Origin: an uncultured delta proteobacterium
GTDB taxonomy: Bacteria; Desulfobacterota; Binatia; Binatales; Binataceae
DNA length: 64,000 bases
NCBI GenBank assembly: GCA_963765675.1
Contig: CAVXXK010000014.1
Location: 144,818 to 208,817 of the forward strand
Direction of reading: 5' to 3'
The notes beneath the pieces were generated by a model. The model was not told where the DNA came from. It made no database searches and saw only the letters and a program-made list of their open reading frames with translations. The position numbers and the translations under genes were made by a program. Of the stretch, positions 4,895-21,140 are shown in pieces; position 1 is the stretch's first letter, and each line of letters opens with the position of its first letter.

Positions 4895-5372
4895 TGTGAT
4901 TCTCCTTGGGCATTCTCCTTGGCGGCTATGCCCGCCGATTCTGACCGGAGCCTAGCGCAGCGGCTTGCCGATCTGGAAGCGTGCGGGACATAGCGATGCA
5001 CACGCCTGTTGCGTGCGGGATGGCGGACTAAATTTGCGGTGGGTTCGTTTGGTAAATTTTCATGGTGGCTTGAAAAAATTATCCGCGGAGACGCTGGAAA
5101 ATTTTGGGTTCGATCGTATTTTGGGCGACTTTTTGGTCATCTGATTCGCCGATTTTTCGCGGGCGATCAGGACACGTAAACAGGGCGGTTCGAGACTCGC
5201 GCCGTCGTGCCCGAATATGGTGACAAGAAGTTAATCGACGGCGTCATCATGTCATCTATTTTACACGAGAGAGTGGCGAAGTACATAATCTGACGCTTCG
5301 CGTCGGCGGGCGGGGCCGCCCGCTCCCACTGGCAGAAAGATTTGGCGACTACTCGACGCTTGAGGGTTATTC

Positions 5373-5750
5373 GCACTAATCGCGTCGCGGAGATCCTTCG
5401 CCTGCGGCTCAGACCTTCACGAGTCCGAAGGACCCGCCACGCGGGATGAAAGTTAGCGTATAACGACAGGCTGCGCGAAAGACGGGCGGCTCGCGAGCCG
5501 CCCCTACGAAGACAGGTCCCGTTGTCATTCCCGCGCCCTTCGGCAGGCTCAGGGCAGGCTCCGGCTGCCGCGCGAGAGCCTGTCCTGAGCAAGGCCGAAG
5601 GAAATCCCGAACCAGAGGGCGCTGCATGAGGCGTGGACTCCGAGCATGGACGCCTCGGGATTCCTCGCCCAGGGCTCGGAATGACGATCAACGGTTCGGC
5701 TGAGACTACGCTAGTCATCGCCCCACACACTTTACGGCAGGATGACGACA
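5373..5750. repeat. Composite REP/BIME-like mosaic
   Basis: Right arm of family A (5373-5412), a GTAG-type hairpin on the minus strand (5484-5507), a family B block (about 5479-5601, inverted copy at about 27496-27620), and a terminal caggatgac near 5738-5746. Confidence 0.8.
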
Positions 5751-5816
5751 GCGGCATCGGAGAGGACGCGGAGAATCTTCAGGCCGCCTTTGACGGCGGA
5801 TATTCCTGCGCGCGGC

Positions 5817-6698
5817 CTACGATTTCAGGAAATCCAGAATCAGCTTGTTCACCTCGGCGGGTTTTTCCTGGTGGACGAAATGGCCGGCTCCGGCGATTAC
5901 GTGCTTGCGTAGGCCCTTGGGAAAGAATGCTTCCATTCCTTCGAGCAGCTCGGCGCCGATACATCCGTCGTCGCGGCCGTGCAGCATCATCGCGGGTACG
6001 CCTATCGGCGGCGGAGGCGCGGAGGCGGCGGCGATCGCGTCGGCGGGAATCTTCATCATCGCGCCGAGCGTCGCGCGGTAGTATCCGAGCGCGGCCGACA
6101 GGGCGGCGGGATTGCGAAAGCATTTCTTCAGCGGCTCGATGTCGTCTTTGGTGAACTTCCAGCTCGGCGACCAATCGGTCCACATCTTTTCCAGGAATTT
6201 GAAATCGTCGTGGCTGACCGCGGCTTCGGCGAATGCGCCCTGAAAGAAGTACATGTACCAACTGCGCTTTTCCTGCGCGTAATTCGTCACCAGCGCCTTG
6301 ATAAAGGATGTTCCGTAGGGAACCGCAGCGGTGATTAGCTTGGTCACGCGCGCGGGCTCGGCCGCAGCGGCGGGATAGGCGGCGACGGCGCCCCAATCGT
6401 GCCCGAAGAGAATCGCGTCCTTGTATCCGAGCGCCGCGATCAGGCTGAGCGCGTCTTCGCCGAGAGCGCCCGAATCATAGCGGCCGTCCGGCGCGAGGCT
6501 GGTCGGCGCATAGCCGCGCATGAACGGCGCGACGATGCGATATCCCGCGTCCGCCAATGGTTTCATCTGATGCCGGAACGAATAGGCGGTATCTGGAAAT
6601 CCATGCAGGCACAGGATCAGCGGACCGTCACCCTGCTCGAGGACATGAAAGTCGATATTGGATGCGCGAACGACGCGCTCGGTTATCTGCGACGCCAT
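5817..6698 (-). CDS. Alpha/beta hydrolase, epoxide hydrolase-like
   Basis: HGFP oxyanion motif, GHDWG nucleophile Asp, GHFVHQE catalytic His. Confidence 0.9.
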   Translation of the reverse strand: MASQITERVVRASNIDFHVLEQGDGPLILCLHGFPDTAYSFRHQMKPLADAGYRIVAPFMRGYAPTSLAPDGRYDSGALGEDALSLIAALGYKDAILFGHDWGAVAAYPAAAAEPARVTKLITAAVPYGTSFIKALVTNYAQEKRSWYMYFFQGAFAEAAVSHDDFKFLEKMWTDWSPSWKFTKDDIEPLKKCFRNPAALSAALGYYRATLGAMMKIPADAIAAASAPPPPIGVPAMMLHGRDDGCIGAELLEGMEAFFPKGLRKHVIAGAGHFVHQEKPAEVNKLILDFLKS

Positions 6699-6947
6699 GG
6701 TTCACCTCGCTATTGGCGCAAGCTACTACACTGGCGCATCAGGTTGCATCCGCCGGGCGGCGGCTAGCATCCTAAATCGAGGTTAACGTTAGCTAAGTGC
6801 CCGGCGGAGAACCCATCGAAAGACCGCTGTCGCAATCAGTGCCTAGTCATTTTTAAGCGTAGCAAATCAATGGTGGTCGCGTTCTGCAATTCCAGTCGCG
6901 TTTACGAACTGCCGCGCCGCAGGGCTGCGAGAAGCCGGACGGATAAC

Positions 6948-13274: not shown

Positions 13275-14741
13275 TTACGGAATCAGGCGGCGATACCACG
13301 GGGTTGACGGCGGCATGTAGCCCGGAGGATAGCCGTAGCCCGGCGCGGGATAGCCGTAGCCAGGTGCGCCGTAACCCGGAGGATAGCCGCCCGGATACAC
13401 AGGTGCGCCGTAGGGACTTCGATACGCGTACGGCGATCCGTAGCCGTAAGGGCTCGCGCCGGGAACGACCATGACGGGCGGCCCGCTCGCGGTGCTCATC
13501 CCTTCGCTGTTCGCGTCGACCGATGCTTCGACAAAATTGCTGCCCAGGCCGTATGCGCGAATCGAGGCTTGCTGCCCCGGTGCCATCTGGAAGACGACGT
13601 CAAACGAATTGTAGGCGCCGGCGCCGATCGGAATCGACTTCATCAGGTGGCCGTTCTCGTAGACGCCTGCGCGATGCACTCCCGCGCCGGAGATCTGTCC
13701 GATTACTTCGTAGCTGCCCGGCTGCGCCGGCGACGGCATCACGCCGAGCACGTTTATCTGCACGTTGGTCAGGGGTCCCTCGACGCCTCCGGGCAGCCTG
13801 CGTCCGGGCGCGCCGGTTGCGTCTTCGGAGCCGTCGGCACGCGGAATCTCTTCGGTATTGTTGCGAGGACCAGGAATTGCGGCCGGATCGGCCGAGGCAA
13901 CCGCCTCGGAATCGAGTTCTCCACCGCCGAGCTCGATCATCTTTTCACGGCCGTCATGCGAATGCGTCAGCGCGGCCGCATCCGGCGCGAGCTGCGCTCG
14001 AGCAACGCGTCCGAGCGCGTCGGTCACCTCGAGCGTCTGCGAAGGCGACGGATCCTGCAATCCGAAATCGAAATTCACGCGCTGCTCGCCGCTCACGTCG
14101 CTGACCGCAATCGTCTTGATAGCGGTCGAGCCGTCGAAGATTCCCGCCGAGCGGAGATCGGTGCCTTCAAAGAATCCACGCACCCGCACGCCGCCGCCCG
14201 TAAACGATCTCGAGCTGATCACGACTTGCGGAGCTTTCGGAGCTTCCGGGGGCAGGCTCGCCGATGGAGTCAAAGGACTGGACGCCGGCGGAGCGCTGGT
14301 TGCGACCGGTCCCGCGACCGGCGTCACCTGCGCTTCGAGCGCCGCGATTTGTCCCTTGATTGAATTCCATTGCGGCAGATCCGGCGCTCCCTTGACCGCG
14401 CGCGCCGCGTCGATTTGATTACGGTCTTTCACGATCGCCGCCATCGCATGGCCCGCCGCCGCGCGGTCGCCCTTGTCGAGCGCGCCGCTCAGCGATTGCG
14501 CGTCGCTGGCGAGGCTCGCGACTGGCGGCAGCATAGCGCCCGCCTTCGCGTCGGCGTCGATCGAGTTGAGCATCGCAAAAGCGGCGTCGCTAAGTCCGGA
14601 CGCTACCGCCTGCGGGGAATCAGCGCGCGTAGCGACGGGAGCAAACACCGCGAGCGCGAATGCCAGAATCGCCGCGGACGCTCGGACGGCCCGAGTCCGA
14701 ATCGTATCGCGCAGACAAAGAAAGTTCCGTACGGTTCGCAT
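13275..14741 (-). CDS. Hypothetical exported protein with Pro/Gly/Tyr-rich C-terminal tail
   Basis: Signal-peptide-like N-terminus (...PVATRA); tail of PGYG/PYG repeats. Confidence 0.65.
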   Translation of the reverse strand: MRTVRNFLCLRDTIRTRAVRASAAILAFALAVFAPVATRADSPQAVASGLSDAAFAMLNSIDADAKAGAMLPPVASLASDAQSLSGALDKGDRAAAGHAMAAIVKDRNQIDAARAVKGAPDLPQWNSIKGQIAALEAQVTPVAGPVATSAPPASSPLTPSASLPPEAPKAPQVVISSRSFTGGGVRVRGFFEGTDLRSAGIFDGSTAIKTIAVSDVSGEQRVNFDFGLQDPSPSQTLEVTDALGRVARAQLAPDAAALTHSHDGREKMIELGGGELDSEAVASADPAAIPGPRNNTEEIPRADGSEDATGAPGRRLPGGVEGPLTNVQINVLGVMPSPAQPGSYEVIGQISGAGVHRAGVYENGHLMKSIPIGAGAYNSFDVVFQMAPGQQASIRAYGLGSNFVEASVDANSEGMSTASGPPVMVVPGASPYGYGSPYAYRSPYGAPVYPGGYPPGYGAPGYGYPAPGYGYPPGYMPPSTPWYRRLIP

Positions 14742-15058: not shown

Positions 15059-16066
15059 GTGGGACATCCTGACATCAATGCTGCGGGTTCGTCGCAGGCG
15101 CTCTCCGCCTCGGGCGACTACCGTGCGCTGCGCGACGGTGCGGGTGCGATCGCGCTTGGCGAGCGCATCGTCGTCCGCGTGACCGGCGACGACCGCGTTT
15201 CGTTTCTCCACGGGATGAGCAGCAACGATATCAAGCAGGCGAGCGCGGGCACGGTGATGCCGGCGCTGTTCCTGACCGAGCATGCACATCTGATCGCGGA
15301 CTTTTTCGCGTGGATCGAACCCGACGCGATTCTTATCGAGATCGATTCCGCGCTATGGACCCGCGCGCGGGCGCATCTGGAAAAGCTGCTGGTCGCCGAC
15401 GACGTCGAGTTCGAGGAGCTGACCGAGCTTGCTGTGATCGATATCGAAGGTCCGCGCGCCGCCGAGGCGGTTCGCGCCGTTGCGGGCGAGAAAGCCGCGG
15501 CGCTCGGCGAATGGAGTTTCGTCCGCGCCGACGACGTGACGGTCGGCAATTTGCCGCGACTCGGATCGAGTGCGTTTACGATTCTGGCGCCGGCTGAAAA
15601 GACCGTGTCGATCCTGGCACAGATAACCGCGCTCGGCCCCGATTTTCGCGCAGTCGGCGCCGATGCGCTCGAAATCGTCCGAGTCGAGAACGGACTGGCG
15701 CTGACCGGCGTCGATACTGTCGAGAAGACTATCGCGCTCGAAGCGCGGCTTGACCGTGCAATCTCGCTGCGCAAGGGATGCTACGTCGGCCAGGAGACGA
15801 TCGAGCGCGCCACCGCCCGCGGCGGACTCCGCAAGCGCCTGTTCGGACTGCGAATCGAGGGCGCGCGCGCGCCGCAGCCAGGATCACCCGTGATGCTCGC
15901 CGGAAAGGAAGTAGGGCGCGTGACCAGCGTGGTGCATTCGCCGAAGCTCGGCGTGATCGCTCTCGCGATCCTGAATCAGAGCGCGTGGGCGCAAGCCTCG
16001 GCGCTTTCGATCGCCGATCCGGCCGGCGAAATCATAGCGCGGACGAGCGAGATTCCGTTCCGTTGA
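15059..16066 (+). CDS. ygfZ: Folate-binding Fe-S repair protein, YgfZ/GcvT family
   Basis: KGCYVGQE signature; VTGDDRVSFLHG. Confidence 0.9.
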   Translation: MGHPDINAAGSSQALSASGDYRALRDGAGAIALGERIVVRVTGDDRVSFLHGMSSNDIKQASAGTVMPALFLTEHAHLIADFFAWIEPDAILIEIDSALWTRARAHLEKLLVADDVEFEELTELAVIDIEGPRAAEAVRAVAGEKAAALGEWSFVRADDVTVGNLPRLGSSAFTILAPAEKTVSILAQITALGPDFRAVGADALEIVRVENGLALTGVDTVEKTIALEARLDRAISLRKGCYVGQETIERATARGGLRKRLFGLRIEGARAPQPGSPVMLAGKEVGRVTSVVHSPKLGVIALAILNQSAWAQASALSIADPAGEIIARTSEIPFR

Positions 16067-16070
16067 TGGT

Positions 16071-16107
16071 TACAATCATTAAAGCAGTACTTTAAGTTTT
16101 AAAGGAG
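16071..16107 (+). promoter_or_regulatory. Putative -10 box, palindromic operator and RBS for the desulforedoxin-like operon
   Basis: TACAAT at 16071-16076; TTAAAG-N5-CTTTAA at 16079-16095; AAGGAG at 16102-16107. Confidence 0.45.
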
Positions 16108-16115
16108 CAAGCGCA

Positions 16116-16259
16116 ATGGCAAACACCCTGGGTAAACGTTACCAGTGCGAAAAGTGCGGCACCGAGGTCCTGTGCAACAAGGCCGGCACCGGCGAGCTCG
16201 AATGCTGCGACCTGCAGATGAAGATCAAAGAGGCCAAGCCGCTTCCTTCGTCTGACTAG
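16116..16259 (+). CDS. Desulforedoxin-like small protein (47 aa) with C-terminal KPLPSSD tail; not in ORF track
   Basis: MANTLGKRYQCEKCGTEVLCNKAGTGELECCDLQMKIKEAKPLPSSD; C-x2-C-x15-CC; AAGGAG RBS 8 nt upstream. Confidence 0.88.
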   Translation: MANTLGKRYQCEKCGTEVLCNKAGTGELECCDLQMKIKEAKPLPSSD

Positions 16260-16287: not shown

Positions 16288-17847
16288 GTGGCTGCCACCT
16301 CCGCCAAGGCCGATCTCGTCCTCCATCAGGGCGTGATTTTCGGGCATCGCGATAGCGACTCGGTCGCGGTCAGCGGAGGCCGGATCGTAAGCCACGGCCC
16401 TTATTCGGAACTCAAGGCGCTGGTCGGGCCGAGGACGCATCTGATCAAGCTCGCGGGGCGCACACTCGCGCCCGGTTTTGTGGATGCGCATCTCCATTTT
16501 CTTGAAGCTGCTTCCGCCGTCAGCGGGCTCGCGGTATGGCGATGCCGCAACCTTGCGGATCTGCTGGCAGACCTGCGCGTCGGCGCGGGACGGACTCCGC
16601 CGGGCAACTGGCTGCGCGCGTTCGGATGCGACGAGGCGCTGCTCGCGGGCAAACGCGGCCCGACGCGCGACGAGCTTGATCAGGCGGTCGCGAAGAATCC
16701 GCTGAGGCTGCGGCATCAGACGCTCCATGCTTCATGGCTCAACACTCGTGCGATAAATCAGCTAGGACTCGAAGCCAAAGATTTTCGTCCGCCCCCCGGC
16801 GCCACGATGTTCCGTGACGGAACCGGCAGGCTGACAGGCCTTGTGGTCGGGATGGAAGAGTGGCTGACGCATCATCTGCCGCTCGTGACCAAGGCTGAGC
16901 TCGAGGCGCGCGCGCGCACGATGAGCCGCGAGCTATGCGCTGCCGGAGTAACTGCGTTCACCGACGCAACCGTGCGCAACGGCCCCGAAGAGGTCGAGCT
17001 GTTCGCGAGGCTCGCCGCCTCGGGCGCGATCTGCCAGCGCGTCGCGATGATGGTCGGCGCGCGGCATCTGGAAGCCGCCACCAAAAGCGCGGAGGTTGCG
17101 CACGCCGCCGGAATCCGGCTGGCGGGACTCAAGTTCATGCCCGGCAGCGCCTATGACGGCTCGACCGCGGCGCGCCGCGTGCGCATCGCTCTCAGCAGCG
17201 GACTTGACTGCGCGTTTCATGCGACCGAAGTCGAGGAGCTGGACGAAGCGCTCGAGGCGATCGAGCTCGCGCAGCGCCAGATCGGCGCAGCCAAGACGCC
17301 TGCGGTATGCCGAATCGAGCACGGCGGCGTCATCTCGCCGGATCACATCGCGCGAATCGTGGCTGCGCGCGCGTGGATCGTCACCAATCCCGGTTTCATT
17401 TATTTTCGCGGACCCAAGTACTCAGCCGAGGCGGGACTTGCGCCGCATCTGTATCGTGCCGCCTCGCTGCGCGCGGCCGGAATCGAGCTGGCCGGCGCTT
17501 CCGACGCTCCGGTGACGCCCGCGCGTCCACTCGTCGGTGTGGCCGCCGCAATCTCCCGCGCGACGATCGACGGCAATGTCCTCGGCGCCGAAGAGCGGCT
17601 TGCTCCCGCCGAGGCGTTCGCGCTCTTCACGCGCGACGGCGCCCGCCTCCAGCGCCTGGAGGCCGGCGAGATTGCGCCGGGGATGCTCGCCGATATGGTG
17701 GTGCTCCAGCGCGACCCGATGACGCTCGGTCCCGCCGAGTTGCTCGCGCTCAACGTCGATATGACCCTTATCGCGGGCCGCGTCGTGTACGAACGCGGCC
17801 GTCCCGCGGTCGCCCACAGCGACAGCGCGGATCTTCATTCAGCCTGA
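16288..17847 (+). CDS. Amidohydrolase_3 (YtcJ-like) metal-dependent amidohydrolase
   Basis: PGFVDAHLH, FHA, RIEH, SDAPV, G..ADMVVL motifs. Confidence 0.88.
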   Translation: MAATSAKADLVLHQGVIFGHRDSDSVAVSGGRIVSHGPYSELKALVGPRTHLIKLAGRTLAPGFVDAHLHFLEAASAVSGLAVWRCRNLADLLADLRVGAGRTPPGNWLRAFGCDEALLAGKRGPTRDELDQAVAKNPLRLRHQTLHASWLNTRAINQLGLEAKDFRPPPGATMFRDGTGRLTGLVVGMEEWLTHHLPLVTKAELEARARTMSRELCAAGVTAFTDATVRNGPEEVELFARLAASGAICQRVAMMVGARHLEAATKSAEVAHAAGIRLAGLKFMPGSAYDGSTAARRVRIALSSGLDCAFHATEVEELDEALEAIELAQRQIGAAKTPAVCRIEHGGVISPDHIARIVAARAWIVTNPGFIYFRGPKYSAEAGLAPHLYRAASLRAAGIELAGASDAPVTPARPLVGVAAAISRATIDGNVLGAEERLAPAEAFALFTRDGARLQRLEAGEIAPGMLADMVVLQRDPMTLGPAELLALNVDMTLIAGRVVYERGRPAVAHSDSADLHSA

Positions 17848-17849
17848 TC

Positions 17850-18641
17850 ATGGCGCTTTCGGAAAAAGATAACAGCGCGGTCCTTTATGAGAAGCGCGGC
17901 ACCGTCGCGTGGGTGACGCTCAATCGCCCGGCGCAGTTGAACGCGTACAACGTGGCGATGCGCGATGCCCTGTTCCAGACTCTGAGCGCGATTCACGACG
18001 ACCCCGAGGTCCGCGCGATGGTGCTCTGCGGCGCGGGCAATGCGTTTTCGACCGGCGGCGATCTGCACGAGTTCGGCACCGCGCCGTCGCCCGTCGCCGC
18101 GCGATGGATCCGTTTCCGGCGCGACGTGTGGGGACGCCTGAAATCGCTGCCGGTTCCGACGCTCGCGGCCGTGCACGGCTTCACCGTCGGCGGCGGACTT
18201 GAGATGGCGATGCTGTGCGACCTCGCAATCGCGGCCGACGACACCCGCATCTGTCTGCCTGAAACCGGGGTCGGGATGATTCCCGGCGTGGCGGGCACCC
18301 AGACTGCCTCGCGGCGCCTGCGCCTCGGCCGCGCGCTCGATTTGAACCTCACCGGCCGCTGGATTGACGCGCAAGACGCATTGCTTATAGGTTTGGTCGC
18401 CGAAGTCGTTGCGCCGCCGCGGCTCGAGCGGCGCGCACTCGAAATCGCGCGCGGACTTGCTCGCATGCCCCGGGAACACTCTGCTATCGCCAAGCTCGCG
18501 ATCTGGGGCGGACTCGACCTGCCGCTTAGCGAGGGGCTCGATCTCGAGCGCAGGCTCGCGCGGCGGATGGCAATAATGACGCAGCGCGGCAATACAAAGC
18601 GGCACAATTCAGGAGGTAACGCGGTCCGTGAACACCGTTAA
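17850..18641 (+). CDS. Enoyl-CoA hydratase/isomerase (crotonase) with both catalytic Glu
   Basis: VTLNRPAQLNA, FSTGGD, GGGLEM, LPETGVGMIPG; ATG 2 nt after the amidohydrolase stop. Confidence 0.9.
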   Translation: MALSEKDNSAVLYEKRGTVAWVTLNRPAQLNAYNVAMRDALFQTLSAIHDDPEVRAMVLCGAGNAFSTGGDLHEFGTAPSPVAARWIRFRRDVWGRLKSLPVPTLAAVHGFTVGGGLEMAMLCDLAIAADDTRICLPETGVGMIPGVAGTQTASRRLRLGRALDLNLTGRWIDAQDALLIGLVAEVVAPPRLERRALEIARGLARMPREHSAIAKLAIWGGLDLPLSEGLDLERRLARRMAIMTQRGNTKRHNSGGNAVREHR

Positions 18642-20172
18642 TTTCGTGACGATTCCGTCGTCGATCGTTCCCGATCAGGAGATTGTTGATTTCGGGGATC
18701 GGCGGCTGAATTACGCGCAGTTTGCCGATACCGTTGCGCGCCTATCCACGATCTTCAAGCAGCAGGGACTCGCTCCGCGCGATGTCGTTGCCGCGCTCGA
18801 CACCAATTCCGATCTTTATATCGCCGCCTACTACGCCGCCGCCAAAGCCGGGCTCACCTTCCTGCCGCTCAACTACCGCGCCAAGGAAGCCGAGCTCGAA
18901 TACATGATCAACACCGCGGCGACCAAGGTTCTGCTCGCCGGCGATCGCTATCTTGACCTGATCAAGCGCCTGCGCCCGCGCCTCAAGCTCGCGAACGTCC
19001 TTGCGATCGGCGACGGAGAGCCGGGAATCCCGCGCCTTTCCGATCTGATCGCCAAGGCCGAGCCCGACGAAGCCGAGGCCGAAGTCGAGGACGAGGACAC
19101 TTCGATCCTGATGTACACCAGCGGCACCACGTCGCTGCCGAAGGGCGTGATGCTCTCGTTTCGCGATTTCACCGCGTACGTGACGGCAAACATCGAAATG
19201 GCGGACGGCACCGACCGCGGCGTCGCACTGGTGTGCGTGCCGTTTTACCATATCGCCGGAACCACCGCGTACATGACCAACATCTGGACCGGCAGAAGGC
19301 TGGTCGTGATGCCGCAATTTGACGCCAAAGCGTGGCTGGCTCTGGTCGCGAAGGAGCGGGTCACGCACGCGTTCGTAGTGCCCACGATGATGAAGCAGGT
19401 CCTCGACGAGCCGTCATTCAAATCGACCGATCTTTCGAGCCTGACCAATCTCGCCTATGGCGGCGCGCCGATGCCGATCCAGGTGATCCGCCGCGCGATC
19501 GAGGCGTTCCCCGCCACGGTCGGCTTCGTCAACGCGTACGGACAGACCGAAACCACATCGTCGCTCATCATCCTCGGCCCCGACGACCATCGGATTACCG
19601 GCACACCGCAGGAGAAGGAACAGAAGCTCCGGCGTCTCAACTCGATCGGCAAGCCGCTCCCCGACGTCGAGATCCGCGTGCGCGACGAAGACGGCGCGCT
19701 GCTTCCGCATGGCAAGGTGGGCGAGATCGTCATCCGCACCCCGCGCATCATGAAGGGCTATGCTGGACGCACCGACGACGCCGCGCTGGCCGAAGGATGG
19801 CGCGCGACCGGTGACCTCGGCTGGATCGACGAAGACGGTTACGTGTTTTTCGCCGGCCGCAAGGACGACATGATTATCCGCGGCGGCGAGAATATCGCGC
19901 CGGCCGAAATCGAAACCGTGCTGATGAGCCATCCTGCGGTCGATGAATGCGCGGTGATCGGAGTTCCCTCGGTCGAGTGGGGCCAGACCGTCAAGGCGTT
20001 CGTGGTTTGTCGCGCGGGAGAAAAGATCACGCGCGACGATTTGAGCGAGTTCTGCCGCTCGCGCCTGGCGAGTTTCAAACGCCCCGAGCAGATCGAATTT
20101 ATCGACGCGCTGCCCAAAAATCCCCTGGGCAAGATCCTGCGCAAAGATCTGCGCGCGCCGTCGGGAGACTGA
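18628..20172 (+). CDS. Class I adenylate-forming enzyme (acyl-CoA ligase family)
   Basis: YTSGTTSLPKG, AYGQTE, TGDLG, GRKDDMIIRGGENI, PKNPLGK; AGGAGG RBS. Confidence 0.93.
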   Translation: MNTVNFVTIPSSIVPDQEIVDFGDRRLNYAQFADTVARLSTIFKQQGLAPRDVVAALDTNSDLYIAAYYAAAKAGLTFLPLNYRAKEAELEYMINTAATKVLLAGDRYLDLIKRLRPRLKLANVLAIGDGEPGIPRLSDLIAKAEPDEAEAEVEDEDTSILMYTSGTTSLPKGVMLSFRDFTAYVTANIEMADGTDRGVALVCVPFYHIAGTTAYMTNIWTGRRLVVMPQFDAKAWLALVAKERVTHAFVVPTMMKQVLDEPSFKSTDLSSLTNLAYGGAPMPIQVIRRAIEAFPATVGFVNAYGQTETTSSLIILGPDDHRITGTPQEKEQKLRRLNSIGKPLPDVEIRVRDEDGALLPHGKVGEIVIRTPRIMKGYAGRTDDAALAEGWRATGDLGWIDEDGYVFFAGRKDDMIIRGGENIAPAEIETVLMSHPAVDECAVIGVPSVEWGQTVKAFVVCRAGEKITRDDLSEFCRSRLASFKRPEQIEFIDALPKNPLGKILRKDLRAPSGD

Positions 20173-20175
20173 CCA

Positions 20176-20940
20176 ACGGCGTCCCGCGCGAAAACCCACA
20201 GGCCGGCTCCCGCGCGCGAGCCGATCGAGATCGCGCTCACCGGCGGATGCGTCACCGCGCGGATTATTGACGCGCGCCGTCCGCTCGGCTCGGCGGGCGC
20301 CAACCGGATGCTCGAGCTGTTCGAGCAGGTCGAAGACGACGAATCGATCCTGATGCTCGCGATCACGGGGACCGGCGCGTCGTTCTGCGAAGGATTTGGC
20401 GACGACGTAGATCCGCGAATCGTCGAGTCGTTCGCCGCGATTTCCAAACCGACCGTCGCGATTATCAACGGCAACGCGATCGACGAGGGGCTCGAGCTCG
20501 CGCTCGCGGCCGATATCCGAGTGATTGTCCGCCGCGCCCGGATCGCGCTGACTCAACTAGCGCGCGGCGAGCTTCCGCATTTCGGAGGAACCCAGCGCCT
20601 GGCGCGAATCGCCGGACCCGCGCAGGCGCTCAGGATGCTCCTGACCGGCGCCGCGCTCGACGGCGCCGCGGCCGAGCGCGTCGGTATCGCGACTTATCTG
20701 GCTAAAGACGAACGCGATCTCGCGCGGGCTGCAGGAGCCCTTGCCGAGGCGATTCTCTCTCGCGCCCCGCTCGCGGCGCGGCTGGTCAAAGACGCTGTCC
20801 TCAAGGGATACGATATGACTTTGGAGCAGGGTGTCAGGCTTGAGGAAGATCTGTACGCCCTGCTACAAACGACTGCCGACCGTGGCGAAGGCGTGCGCGC
20901 GTTCCTGGACAAGCGCAAGCCGATTTTCCGCGGCGCTTGA
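20176..20940 (+). CDS. Degenerate enoyl-CoA hydratase-like protein; start uncertain
   Basis: KPTVAIING, GLELALAADIR, GGTQRL, EGVRAFLDKRKPIF. Crotonase-like sequence extends upstream of Met20308 with no canonical start codon. Confidence 0.8.
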   Translation, partial: TASRAKTHRPAPAREPIEIALTGGCVTARIIDARRPLGSAGANRMLELFEQVEDDESILMLAITGTGASFCEGFGDDVDPRIVESFAAISKPTVAIINGNAIDEGLELALAADIRVIVRRARIALTQLARGELPHFGGTQRLARIAGPAQALRMLLTGAALDGAAAERVGIATYLAKDERDLARAAGALAEAILSRAPLAARLVKDAVLKGYDMTLEQGVRLEEDLYALLQTTADRGEGVRAFLDKRKPIFRGA

Positions 20941-20967: not shown

Positions 20968-21087
20968 ATGGCCAATCAACTGGGCAAAGTTTATATCTGC
21001 GCCAAATGCGGCTCGCAGGTGATCGTGACCAAGGGCGGCACCGGCCTGCTCAAATGCTGCGGCGTTCCGATGGAACAGAAAAAGTAA
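20968..21087 (+). CDS. Second desulforedoxin-like small protein (39 aa), no tail; not in ORF track
   Basis: MANQLGKVYICAKCGSQVIVTKGGTGLLKCCGVPMEQKK; C-x2-C-x15-CC; AAAGGA RBS; 21/38 identical to the 16116 protein by manual ungapped alignment. Confidence 0.88.
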   Translation: MANQLGKVYICAKCGSQVIVTKGGTGLLKCCGVPMEQKK

Positions 21088-21140
21088 TCCGCCGCCGCTG
21101 GCGGCGTCCAAGATGATCGATCGATAAGGAGGACCTCCCG

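Follow-up and report, generated by a model that had tools for sequence, protein, structure and literature searches.

A 64,000-nucleotide stretch of a Binataceae genome (contig CAVXXK010000014.1; hereafter the window) encodes two very small proteins of the desulforedoxin type, Dx1 and Dx2, the first of which carries a conserved C-terminal tail. Dx1 is the tailed half, and Dx2 the tail-less half, of a split, ligase-associated mini-protein. Proteins in which a tail-less domain is fused to a tailed one are common, and the pair in the window is therefore read as the split form. The tail is the best-conserved part of the family, above the metal-binding core.

Two desulforedoxin-fold proteins in one operon

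The features of the two genes are as follows.

16102..16107, + strand: Shine–Dalgarno-like AAGGAG, read from the sequence, 8 nt 5' of the Dx1 ATG
16116..16259, + strand: Dx1, tail-bearing desulforedoxin-fold mini-protein of 47 aa (open reading frame; PF06397; 117 near homologues; 80 syntenic loci)
16131..16142, + strand: GKRY motif, Dx1 residues 6–9 (from conservation)
16146..16208, + strand: metal-binding core of Dx1, with C11, C14, C30 and C31 plus the extra C20 (CxxC...CC as in desulforedoxin)
16233..16256, + strand: C-terminal tail AKPLPSSD, Dx1 residues 40–47, not in Dx2
20968..21087, + strand: Dx2, the tail-less half, 39 aa (open reading frame; PF06397)

Dx1 and Dx2, judged from their sequences, are paralogues with the desulforedoxin fold: in a Pfam scan both score above the cut-off of 23 bits for PF06397 (Desulfoferrod_N), at 25.2 and 33.1 bits, respectively, and 21 of 39 residues are identical in a gapless alignment. 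Fold and Pfam score alike place Dx1 in the desulforedoxin domain family. Both proteins fall below the cut-off of 36 bits for the NCBIfam model TIGR00319 (19.3 bits for Dx1, 27.7 for Dx2). The four cysteine ligands of the CxxC...CC pattern (C11, C14, C30 and C31 in Dx1) recur as the same set in Dx2. In a sequence search of solved structures with Dx1, the best matches were to the N-terminal domain of desulfoferrodoxin (1dfx, 1vzg; E 6e-5, residues 9–38), and no solved structure other than desulforedoxin and desulfoferrodoxin was matched. Assignment of Dx1 as a desulfoferrodoxin, that is, a superoxide reductase, was considered and rejected: the protein has only 47 residues, contains no neelaredoxin-type iron domain and reaches 25.2 bits against a cut-off of 146.9 for TIGR00320.

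An earlier note on this DNA, made from the sequence alone, had described a tail of about eight residues on Dx1 without counterpart in Dx2, and a fifth cysteine. Both are borne out by the 39-residue gapless alignment: Dx2 ends in ...MEQKK where Dx1 runs on for eight further residues (A40–D47, AKPLPSSD), and Cys20 of Dx1 (in EVLCNK) is a valine in Dx2 (QVIVTK). The 4.5-Mb genome contains no copy besides Dx1 and Dx2, except for a single weak match (E 0.019).

Conservation of the tail

Among near homologues of Dx1, 113 of 117 end in K[PA]LP[STA]SD, and the other four are read-through or broken gene calls. Within Binataceae, 80 syntenic loci from species-level genomes were compared, and Dx1 ends in K[PA]LPSSD in all 80. 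Dx2 was detected in 61 of these loci, ending in [ML][EG]QKK every time and bearing the tail in none; in the remaining loci a contig end intervenes or the operon is split. No two of the 80 Dx1 genes are identical as DNA, and tail codons 43–47 use 6, 4, 6, 4 and 2 different codons with zero amino-acid changes, Ser45 being encoded by both AGT and TCN; the stop is fixed at codon 48. Since the codons vary only synonymously and the stop does not move, the tail is under purifying selection, both as a peptide and as a C-terminus.

The pattern extends far beyond this family of bacteria. A profile search of 1.84 billion representatives returned 1291 proteins at E ≤ 0.001 and 284 at E ≤ 1e-10. Of the best 150 representatives, 122 end in Asp (hereafter the 122 tailed representatives) and 121 in [SAG]D; the remaining 28 are mostly run-on or frameshifted calls, together with small subfamilies ending in ...SE, ...AAF and ...VG. 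The tail motif of the family is [KR]x[LI]P[SA][SA]D-COOH, with an information content across the 122 tailed representatives of 3.0 bits at −7 (K/R), 3.0 at −5 (L/I), 3.5 at −4 (P), 3.5 at −3 (S), 3.4 at −2 (S) and 4.3 at −1 (D). The terminal Asp is present in 122 of 122. Position −2 is occupied by S95/A21/G5/T1 and position −3 by S103/A10/G5/T4; at least one Ser or Thr stands at positions −4 to −2 in 121 of 122, and one tailed member ends in LPAGD. A rare subfamily ends in Ser-Glu, so that the acidic end is kept. Conservation of the tail, which the earlier note had proposed, is thus upheld both by the search for motif ends and by the information-content profile, with high values at −7 and from −5 to −1.

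Two other positions are less strictly kept. The GKRY motif occurs in 95 of the 122 tailed representatives and is invariant in alignment A1, and position 20 is Cys in 71 and Val in 30, so that the fifth cysteine is frequent, not invariant. In the structural model of Dx1, which has a predicted local distance difference test score (pLDDT) of 78 overall, residues 41–47 have a mean pLDDT of 62 and there is no secondary structure past residue 37; the tail is accordingly predicted to be flexible and unstructured.

Split and fused forms

At least 47 of the best 150 representatives contain two matched Dx-like stretches, with a single tail at the C-terminus. This fused form, of 80–120 residues, has two Dx-like domains joined by a linker of 10–45 residues; the alignment of 35 fusions shows the N-terminal one to be tail-less and the C-terminal one tailed. 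An AlphaFold2 model of one such protein, P0128 (pLDDT 84.7; predicted template modelling score (pTM) 0.74), shows two beta-rich Dx domains joined by a disordered linker (residues 36–41). In a Foldseek search with this P0128 model, the model of Dx1 itself not being the query, the top match was desulforedoxin 1dxg_A, with a template modelling (TM) score of 0.94 (normalised to the target) and a root mean square deviation of 0.4 Å over 35 columns; the E-value of 0.95 is poor owing to the very small size of the domain. Since desulforedoxin forms a homodimer of 36-residue chains, the fused proteins would resemble covalently linked dimers, and Dx2 plus Dx1 a heterodimer. The earlier note had suggested fused two-domain homologues, with the pair in the window as a split form, and one tail per heterodimer; the fusions provide the first, and the single C-terminal tail on each of them fits the second.

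Where the halves are separate genes, they usually adjoin. In a metagenome set of 80 loci, fetched with a His-variant subfamily as query, 69 have a tail-less gene immediately 5' of the tailed one, at a distance of 0–74 nt or with an overlap of up to 19 nt. The 11 exceptions comprise five of the Binataceae type, with Dx2 kilobases downstream, four with less than 80 nt of upstream sequence, and two that the search pattern possibly missed. In the window, Dx2 lies 4.7 kb downstream of Dx1 in the same operon. Five Binataceae genomes have a broken operon, and both halves are kept in all five.

Fusions to enzymes were also sought. A search for longer proteins with Dx1 gave 10 matches (eight with mis-called starts and two with an apparent read-through into the amidohydrolase gene and frameshifted tails), none of which was counted as real, which is weak evidence of absence. 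The same search with the 35 fused forms gave six matches, all with wrong-frame-looking stretches and none counted; P0278 is a read-through from the tail into an AMP-binding gene.

Two further architectures were seen among the representatives. Thirteen proteins (P0187, P0190, P0197, P0203, P0206, P0216, P0221, P0227, P0232, P0248, P0258, P0260 and P0262) have an N-terminal region of about 60 residues followed by a single tailed Dx domain, with no tail-less half; scans of P0187, P0190 and P0203 gave no Pfam match for the N-terminal region. Two-domain subfamilies with other endings (...AAF, ...[AM]SE, ...P[AP]VG) are formed by P0152 and P0219; P0195, P0224, P0228 and P0236; P0188 and P0234; and P0131, in which the tailed-type domain comes first and the chain ends in ...MELKK.

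Metal ligands in the wider family

The metal site is kept less well than the tail. Of the 122 tailed representatives, 100 contain CxxC and 33 have His in place of C31; many members have His, Asp or Asn as the fourth ligand. Across the 35 aligned fusions invariance is confined to four columns (the first and third residues of GKRY, a further Gly and the terminal Asp), the K of GKRY being near-invariant, and the Cys ligands are variable. Fused proteins of Rhodococcus, Streptomyces, Mycobacterium and sphingomonads keep one or two Cys residues at most, yet retain GKRY and KPLP[SA]SD. This distribution indicates that tail and GKRY are constrained and that the metal site is dispensable. In Pfam and NCBIfam scans of tailed proteins, no model other than PF06397, TIGR00319 and TIGR00320 reached its cut-off, and the Cys-poor fused forms gave no significant match in either collection.

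A separate observation concerns P0198 (80 aa), whose Dx1-like N-terminus continues, in place of the tail, into a stretch resembling the start of the superoxide-reductase iron domain. It may be a truncated desulfoferrodoxin, hinting at an evolutionary link between the two families.

Linkage to acyl-CoA ligases

In annotated plasmids of Rhodococcus, Streptomyces, Mycobacterium, Sphingomonas and Sphingobium, the fused protein lies directly beside a same-strand gene for an ANL-superfamily ligase in 13 of 14 places. The fused protein is annotated there as 'hypothetical protein' and its neighbour as 'class I adenylate-forming', 'fatty acid--CoA ligase' or 'AMP-binding'; on a plasmid with two copies, each stands beside its own ligase. 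In the metagenome set a ligase lies within 150 nt in 18 loci, one gene (a crotonase) away in 14 and farther off in four, that is, in 36 of 80 altogether; 19 loci are too short to tell, and 16 have no ligase but extend for at least 1.5 kb on one side only. The earlier note had placed relatives beside acyl-CoA ligases in other phyla, and the plasmid and metagenome loci bear this out.

Within the phylum of the window organism, 301 genomes were sampled. A match at E ≤ 1e-6 was found in 66, and matches reaching the last profile position at 17 places in 16 genomes, the rest being partial or desulfoferrodoxin-like. In families of this phylum other than Binataceae, five of eight loci (L178, L179, L180, L182 and L184) have the order ECH-ECH-ligase (518–520 aa)-Dx2like-Dx1like, where ECH denotes a crotonase. 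At L185 an additional Dx2-like copy stands after the ligase, and the pair itself lies 2 kb downstream; L181 is cut by a contig end.

The plasmid ligases share 48–57% identity with one another across phyla (78% for one closer pair) and 37–41% with the ligase of the window, which has 31% identity to the nearest of the seven other ANL genes in its own genome. In trees rooted at the midpoint, all cluster ligases, that of the window included, fall on one side of a single split, with the genome paralogues and the second ligases of the same contigs on the other (FastTree, 29 rows versus 8, support 98; IQ-TREE LG+G4, 16 versus 7, support 99/98). The mini-protein pair thus appears to travel with one clade of acyl-CoA ligases. 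The closest solved relatives of these ligases are ordinary acyl-CoA synthetases (8weu, 8wev, FadD13 (3r44) and FadD5). The idea that GKRY stands in for a missing A10 catalytic lysine was discarded, as eight plasmid ligases and the window ligase all keep GK[ILV][LV]R.

Genes of the APH-type 'phosphotransferase family' recur beside acyl-CoA dehydrogenases and the mini-protein at L084, L085, L089, L092, L093 and L125, which comprise plasmid clusters and a single metagenome cluster.

The operon in the window and in Binataceae

The operon runs in the order YgfZ-like protein, Dx1, Amidohydro_3 hydrolase, crotonase, ANL ligase, short crotonase, Dx2. Features other than those of Dx1 and Dx2 are given below.

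15059..16066, + strand: YgfZ/GcvT-type folate-binding protein (PF01571, PF08669)
16288..17847, + strand: Amidohydro_3 hydrolase, directly after Dx1 (PF07969 at 6.6e-69)
17850..18641, + strand: crotonase/enoyl-CoA hydratase ECH_A, in the conserved module (PF00378 at 1.1e-47)
18628..20172, + strand: acyl-CoA ligase of the ANL superfamily (PF00501 and PF13193)
20308..20940, + strand: short crotonase-family protein ECH_B, 210 aa (PF00378, profile positions 86–249 only)
21089..21106, + strand: GC-rich hairpin after Dx2, with 7 G-C pairs (placed on the minus strand by the scan)

The hairpin, which has no T-run on the + strand, is the probable end of the operon. The flanks are housekeeping genes, with efp on one side and rsfS, nadD, proA, proB and obg on the other. 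Within Binataceae, synteny extends over the entire neighbourhood, which is therefore of little informative value.

Amidohydro_3 follows Dx1 in 78 of the 80 Binataceae loci, the other two being cut by contig ends; it is not a neighbour in most other lineages. The five broken operons have YgfZ, Dx1 and Amidohydro_3 at one place and ligase, ECH_B and Dx2 at another, so that Amidohydro_3 stays with Dx1, and ECH_B with the ligase and Dx2; a contig start cuts the fifth genome's copy, and the ligase can be seen in the other four. The YgfZ-like gene precedes Dx1 in the 80 Binataceae loci and in two other genomes of the class (L188 and L189), in one of which the YgfZ-like open frame is about 1200 aa long. 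Members of the YgfZ family are linked to iron–sulfur cluster maintenance. The YgfZ link of Dx1 is lineage-specific.

ECH_B matches positions 86–249 of the 251-position ECH_1 profile and is without the first third of the fold. The 136-nt gap between ligase and ECH_B is too short to encode the missing part, and the short form is conserved in Binataceae (matches of about 630 nt). The end of the window ligase, ...RAPSGD (20155–20172, + strand), was considered as a relative of the Dx1 tail and set aside as coincidence: it is not conserved among 62 Binataceae ligase ends, of which 21 end in AGGV and many others differ.

Elsewhere in the window, positions 13275–14741 on the − strand encode a 488-aa protein without a Pfam match, with C-terminal Pro/Gly/Tyr-rich, GYGYP-like repeats. 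It is conserved yet fast-evolving in Binataceae (29–95% identity).

Relation to known systems

Desulforedoxin of Desulfovibrio gigas (1dxg, 1cfw) has the fold and the CxxC...CC pattern in common with Dx1, and its homodimer would be matched by a Dx2–Dx1 heterodimer and by the two-domain fusions. However, it lacks both GKRY and a C-terminal tail, and is a redox protein of anaerobes. The Dx family differs from it in having two differentiated halves, a single tail and dispensable metal ligands, and its genes lie in acyl-CoA ligase clusters, here among aerobic-type housekeeping genes. The N-terminal domain of desulfoferrodoxin, a 2Fe superoxide reductase, is similar in sequence to Dx1, which is without the catalytic domain of that enzyme.

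LysW is a small Cys4 metal ribbon with a flexible acidic C-terminal tail (EDWGE), and is clustered with the enzymes that it serves. Dx1 is alike in combining a small Cys4 globule, a conserved flexible acidic tail and a gene within a cluster; however, its tail ends in PSSD and its neighbours are CoA-dependent enzymes. Neither Dx1 nor Dx2 matched the LysW models PF21344 and TIGR01206 at E ≤ 0.01; one fused relative, P0133, gave a sub-threshold match to a LysW model (E 0.009). The operon and its flanks contain no LysX/ArgX ATP-grasp gene and no LysZ/Y/J/K-type gene, and the 14 plasmid places contain no loader or carrier-dependent genes. ThiS and MoaD, to which the earlier note had likened Dx1, are beta-grasp proteins that end in Gly-Gly and are activated by an E1-like enzyme. 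The likeness lies in a small protein whose C-terminal carboxylate would be adenylated; the fold of Dx1 is instead that of desulforedoxin, its end is Ser-Asp, and no ThiF/MoeB-type gene was found in the operon or flanks.

The nearest analogy, a functional one only, is with MbtH-like proteins, which are likewise small and non-catalytic and are encoded one-to-one beside adenylate-forming (ANL) enzymes. Their fold is unrelated, and PF03621 (MbtH) is not among the Pfam matches of Dx1, Dx2 or 12 relatives; the presumed partners of the Dx proteins, whose binding is proposed below, are acyl-CoA ligases and not adenylation domains of non-ribosomal peptide synthetases.

The family can be defined by the GKRY motif, the tail as C-terminus, a tail-less partner and a ligase of the associated clade, and Dx1 has all of these (G6-K-R-Y9 and a K41-P-L-P-S-S-D47 end). 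No description of a tailed, paired desulforedoxin-fold family was found in a literature search whose coverage excluded subscription journals; what it returned concerned oxygen tolerance in Clostridioides difficile for desulforedoxin-like proteins and, for PF06397, a review and the SORGOdb database. The tailed, paired subfamily has no Pfam or NCBIfam model of its own, and ESM Atlas clusters of the family are labelled 'hypothetical protein'. The tailed, paired mini-proteins are an undescribed, widespread variant of a known fold.

Proposed role of the pair

Building on the conservation pattern, the split and fused forms, the gene linkage and the ligase clade, we infer, with moderate confidence, that the pair is a non-catalytic adaptor that docks onto a partner enzyme, most probably the ligase, by the terminal carboxylate of its flexible tail. 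Dx1 and Dx2 would form a small pseudo-dimeric scaffold, modelled on the desulforedoxin dimer, in which the tailed half would present a basic GKRY patch and the flexible [KR]x[LI]P-small-small-Asp-COOH tail. As an accessory subunit, the pair would serve a catabolic module for CoA activation, in which a dedicated acyl-CoA ligase clade is central and crotonases are usually present. The slim Ser/Ala/Gly stretch and the terminal Asp carboxylate would enter a pocket in the partner, the ligase being the likeliest one, and the docked tail, held there non-covalently, might tune, stabilise or gate the enzyme, as MbtH-like proteins do for adenylation domains.

Several observations weigh against this proposal. 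Where the Binataceae operon is split, the ligase is accompanied by Dx2 and not by Dx1. A ligase does not adjoin the gene at the Rhodococcus gordoniae plasmid place (L089), and nine metagenome loci that extend for 1.5 kb or more in both directions contain none. At L183 (G153:C10) the tail is kept and a two-subunit class I CoA-transferase occupies the ligase slot, in the order ECH-ECH-CoA_trans A/B-Dx2like-Dx1like (about 5356–6806 in locus coordinates), with a metallo-beta-lactamase-fold gene after the tailed gene. In one lineage (L158, L159, L161, L170, L171, L172 and L175) the pair lies between UPF0047 and rpsT, relA/spoT and hisS, with carB/pyrK also nearby and no ligase within up to 6 kb. 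At other loci (L117, L125 and L144) CoA-transferase, APH-type kinase, Rieske/P450 or amine-oxidase genes take the place of a ligase as neighbours, and at L174 the pair is again combined with Amidohydro_3. The counted loci are not independent of one another, and the ligase trees, with few outgroups (7–9) and a midpoint root, give a clustering rather than a rooted clade. Moreover, an invariant terminal acidic residue suits covalent chemistry equally well.

The earlier note had proposed the terminal Asp or a Ser of the tail as a modified residue, by analogy with LysW and ThiS/MoaD. Covalent chemistry would make the tail a carrier comparable to LysW: the ANL ligase would adenylate the terminal Asp, an intermediate would be carried as amide or ester, and a hydrolase would release it, in the way that LysK frees lysine from LysW. 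The terminal Asp of all 122 tailed representatives, preceded by small residues, and the acidic end kept in the Ser-Glu subfamily fit such a role, as do the predicted flexibility of the tail and the presence of an adenylating enzyme as the most constant neighbour; moreover, a hydrolase directly follows the tailed gene in several lineages, with a fold that differs between them (Amidohydro_3 in Binataceae, an alpha/beta hydrolase at L180, L181 and L182, and a metallo-beta-lactamase fold at L183). However, at most plasmid places the gene has no hydrolase next to it, the lineages share no conserved release hydrolase, the CoA-transferase in the ligase slot of L183 is unable to adenylate, and the operon and flanks contain no ATP-grasp or E1-like loader. 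The enzymes of the module (two crotonases, CoA-transferases, acyl-CoA dehydrogenases and thiolases) act on CoA thioesters, which points to CoA as the carrier, and neither Ser is invariant, although nearly all tailed representatives keep a Ser or Thr at −4 to −2. To our knowledge, no ANL enzyme adenylates a protein C-terminus. A covalent carrier mechanism is therefore disfavoured; weakened as it is, it keeps some standing because the invariant terminal Asp permits carboxylate chemistry, and we regard it as unlikely. A fuller version, in which the ligase adenylates the Asp of Dx1 and joins to it an intermediate or CoA itself, so that the pair ferries substrate between the crotonases and the release hydrolase, would apply a LysW-like logic to a desulforedoxin fold with a loader of the acyl-CoA ligase type; it is a little more doubtful still. 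A partner other than the ligase, with Amidohydro_3 (in Binataceae) or the crotonase pair being scaffolded or regulated and the ligase merely co-transcribed, would explain why Amidohydro_3 and Dx1 remain together even in split operons and are paired again at L174, and why the pair persists beside ECH-ECH at L183. Yet none of the 14 plasmid places has Amidohydro_3, nor do the loci from other families of the phylum, and at many loci (for example L102, L104 and L107) the pair directly precedes a ligase with no crotonase match in the locus, so that this, too, seems improbable, much as the simple carrier does.

A role centred on the metal was also weighed, in which an Fe(Cys)4 or Zn(Cys)4 site carries electrons to, or senses metal for, an oxidoreductase of the cluster and the tail only docks the carrier on its partner. 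Dx1 and Dx2 keep all four desulforedoxin ligands, CxxC is widespread among the tailed representatives, and some clusters also encode NMO-type flavoenzymes, acyl-CoA dehydrogenases, ferredoxins or a P450. In the fused forms of Actinomycetota and Sphingomonadaceae, however, few or no ligands remain in one domain or both, whereas GKRY, the tail and the ligase neighbour are kept; substitution of the fourth ligand by His, Asp or Asn in many members, and the absence of a constant oxidoreductase among the neighbours, likewise make a redox or sensing function quite improbable. As a conserved, exposed C-terminal peptide, the tail could in principle be a stability or degradation signal, either a degron or a protease recognition site. 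This is highly improbable: one half of the pair lacks the tail, the loci inspected contain no linked protease gene, and the conservation of the tail across phyla exceeds that of the ligands of the fold itself, which is not typical of degrons.

Implications

Acyl-CoA ligases are commonly handled as stand-alone enzymes. If this widespread ligase clade needs the pair, heterologous expression or assay of its members without their partner could mislead. The clade ranges from soil Binatia and other families of the phylum to Rhodococcus, Mycobacterium, Streptomyces and the catabolic plasmids of sphingomonads. Should the adaptor proposal hold, thousands of genes of 40–100 residues, now 'hypothetical' or missed by gene callers, would gain a role, and a fold otherwise known only from a redox module of anaerobes would have been reused as a metal-optional scaffold for protein binding. 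The tail offers a small, sharply defined experimental target of seven residues with one invariant Asp.

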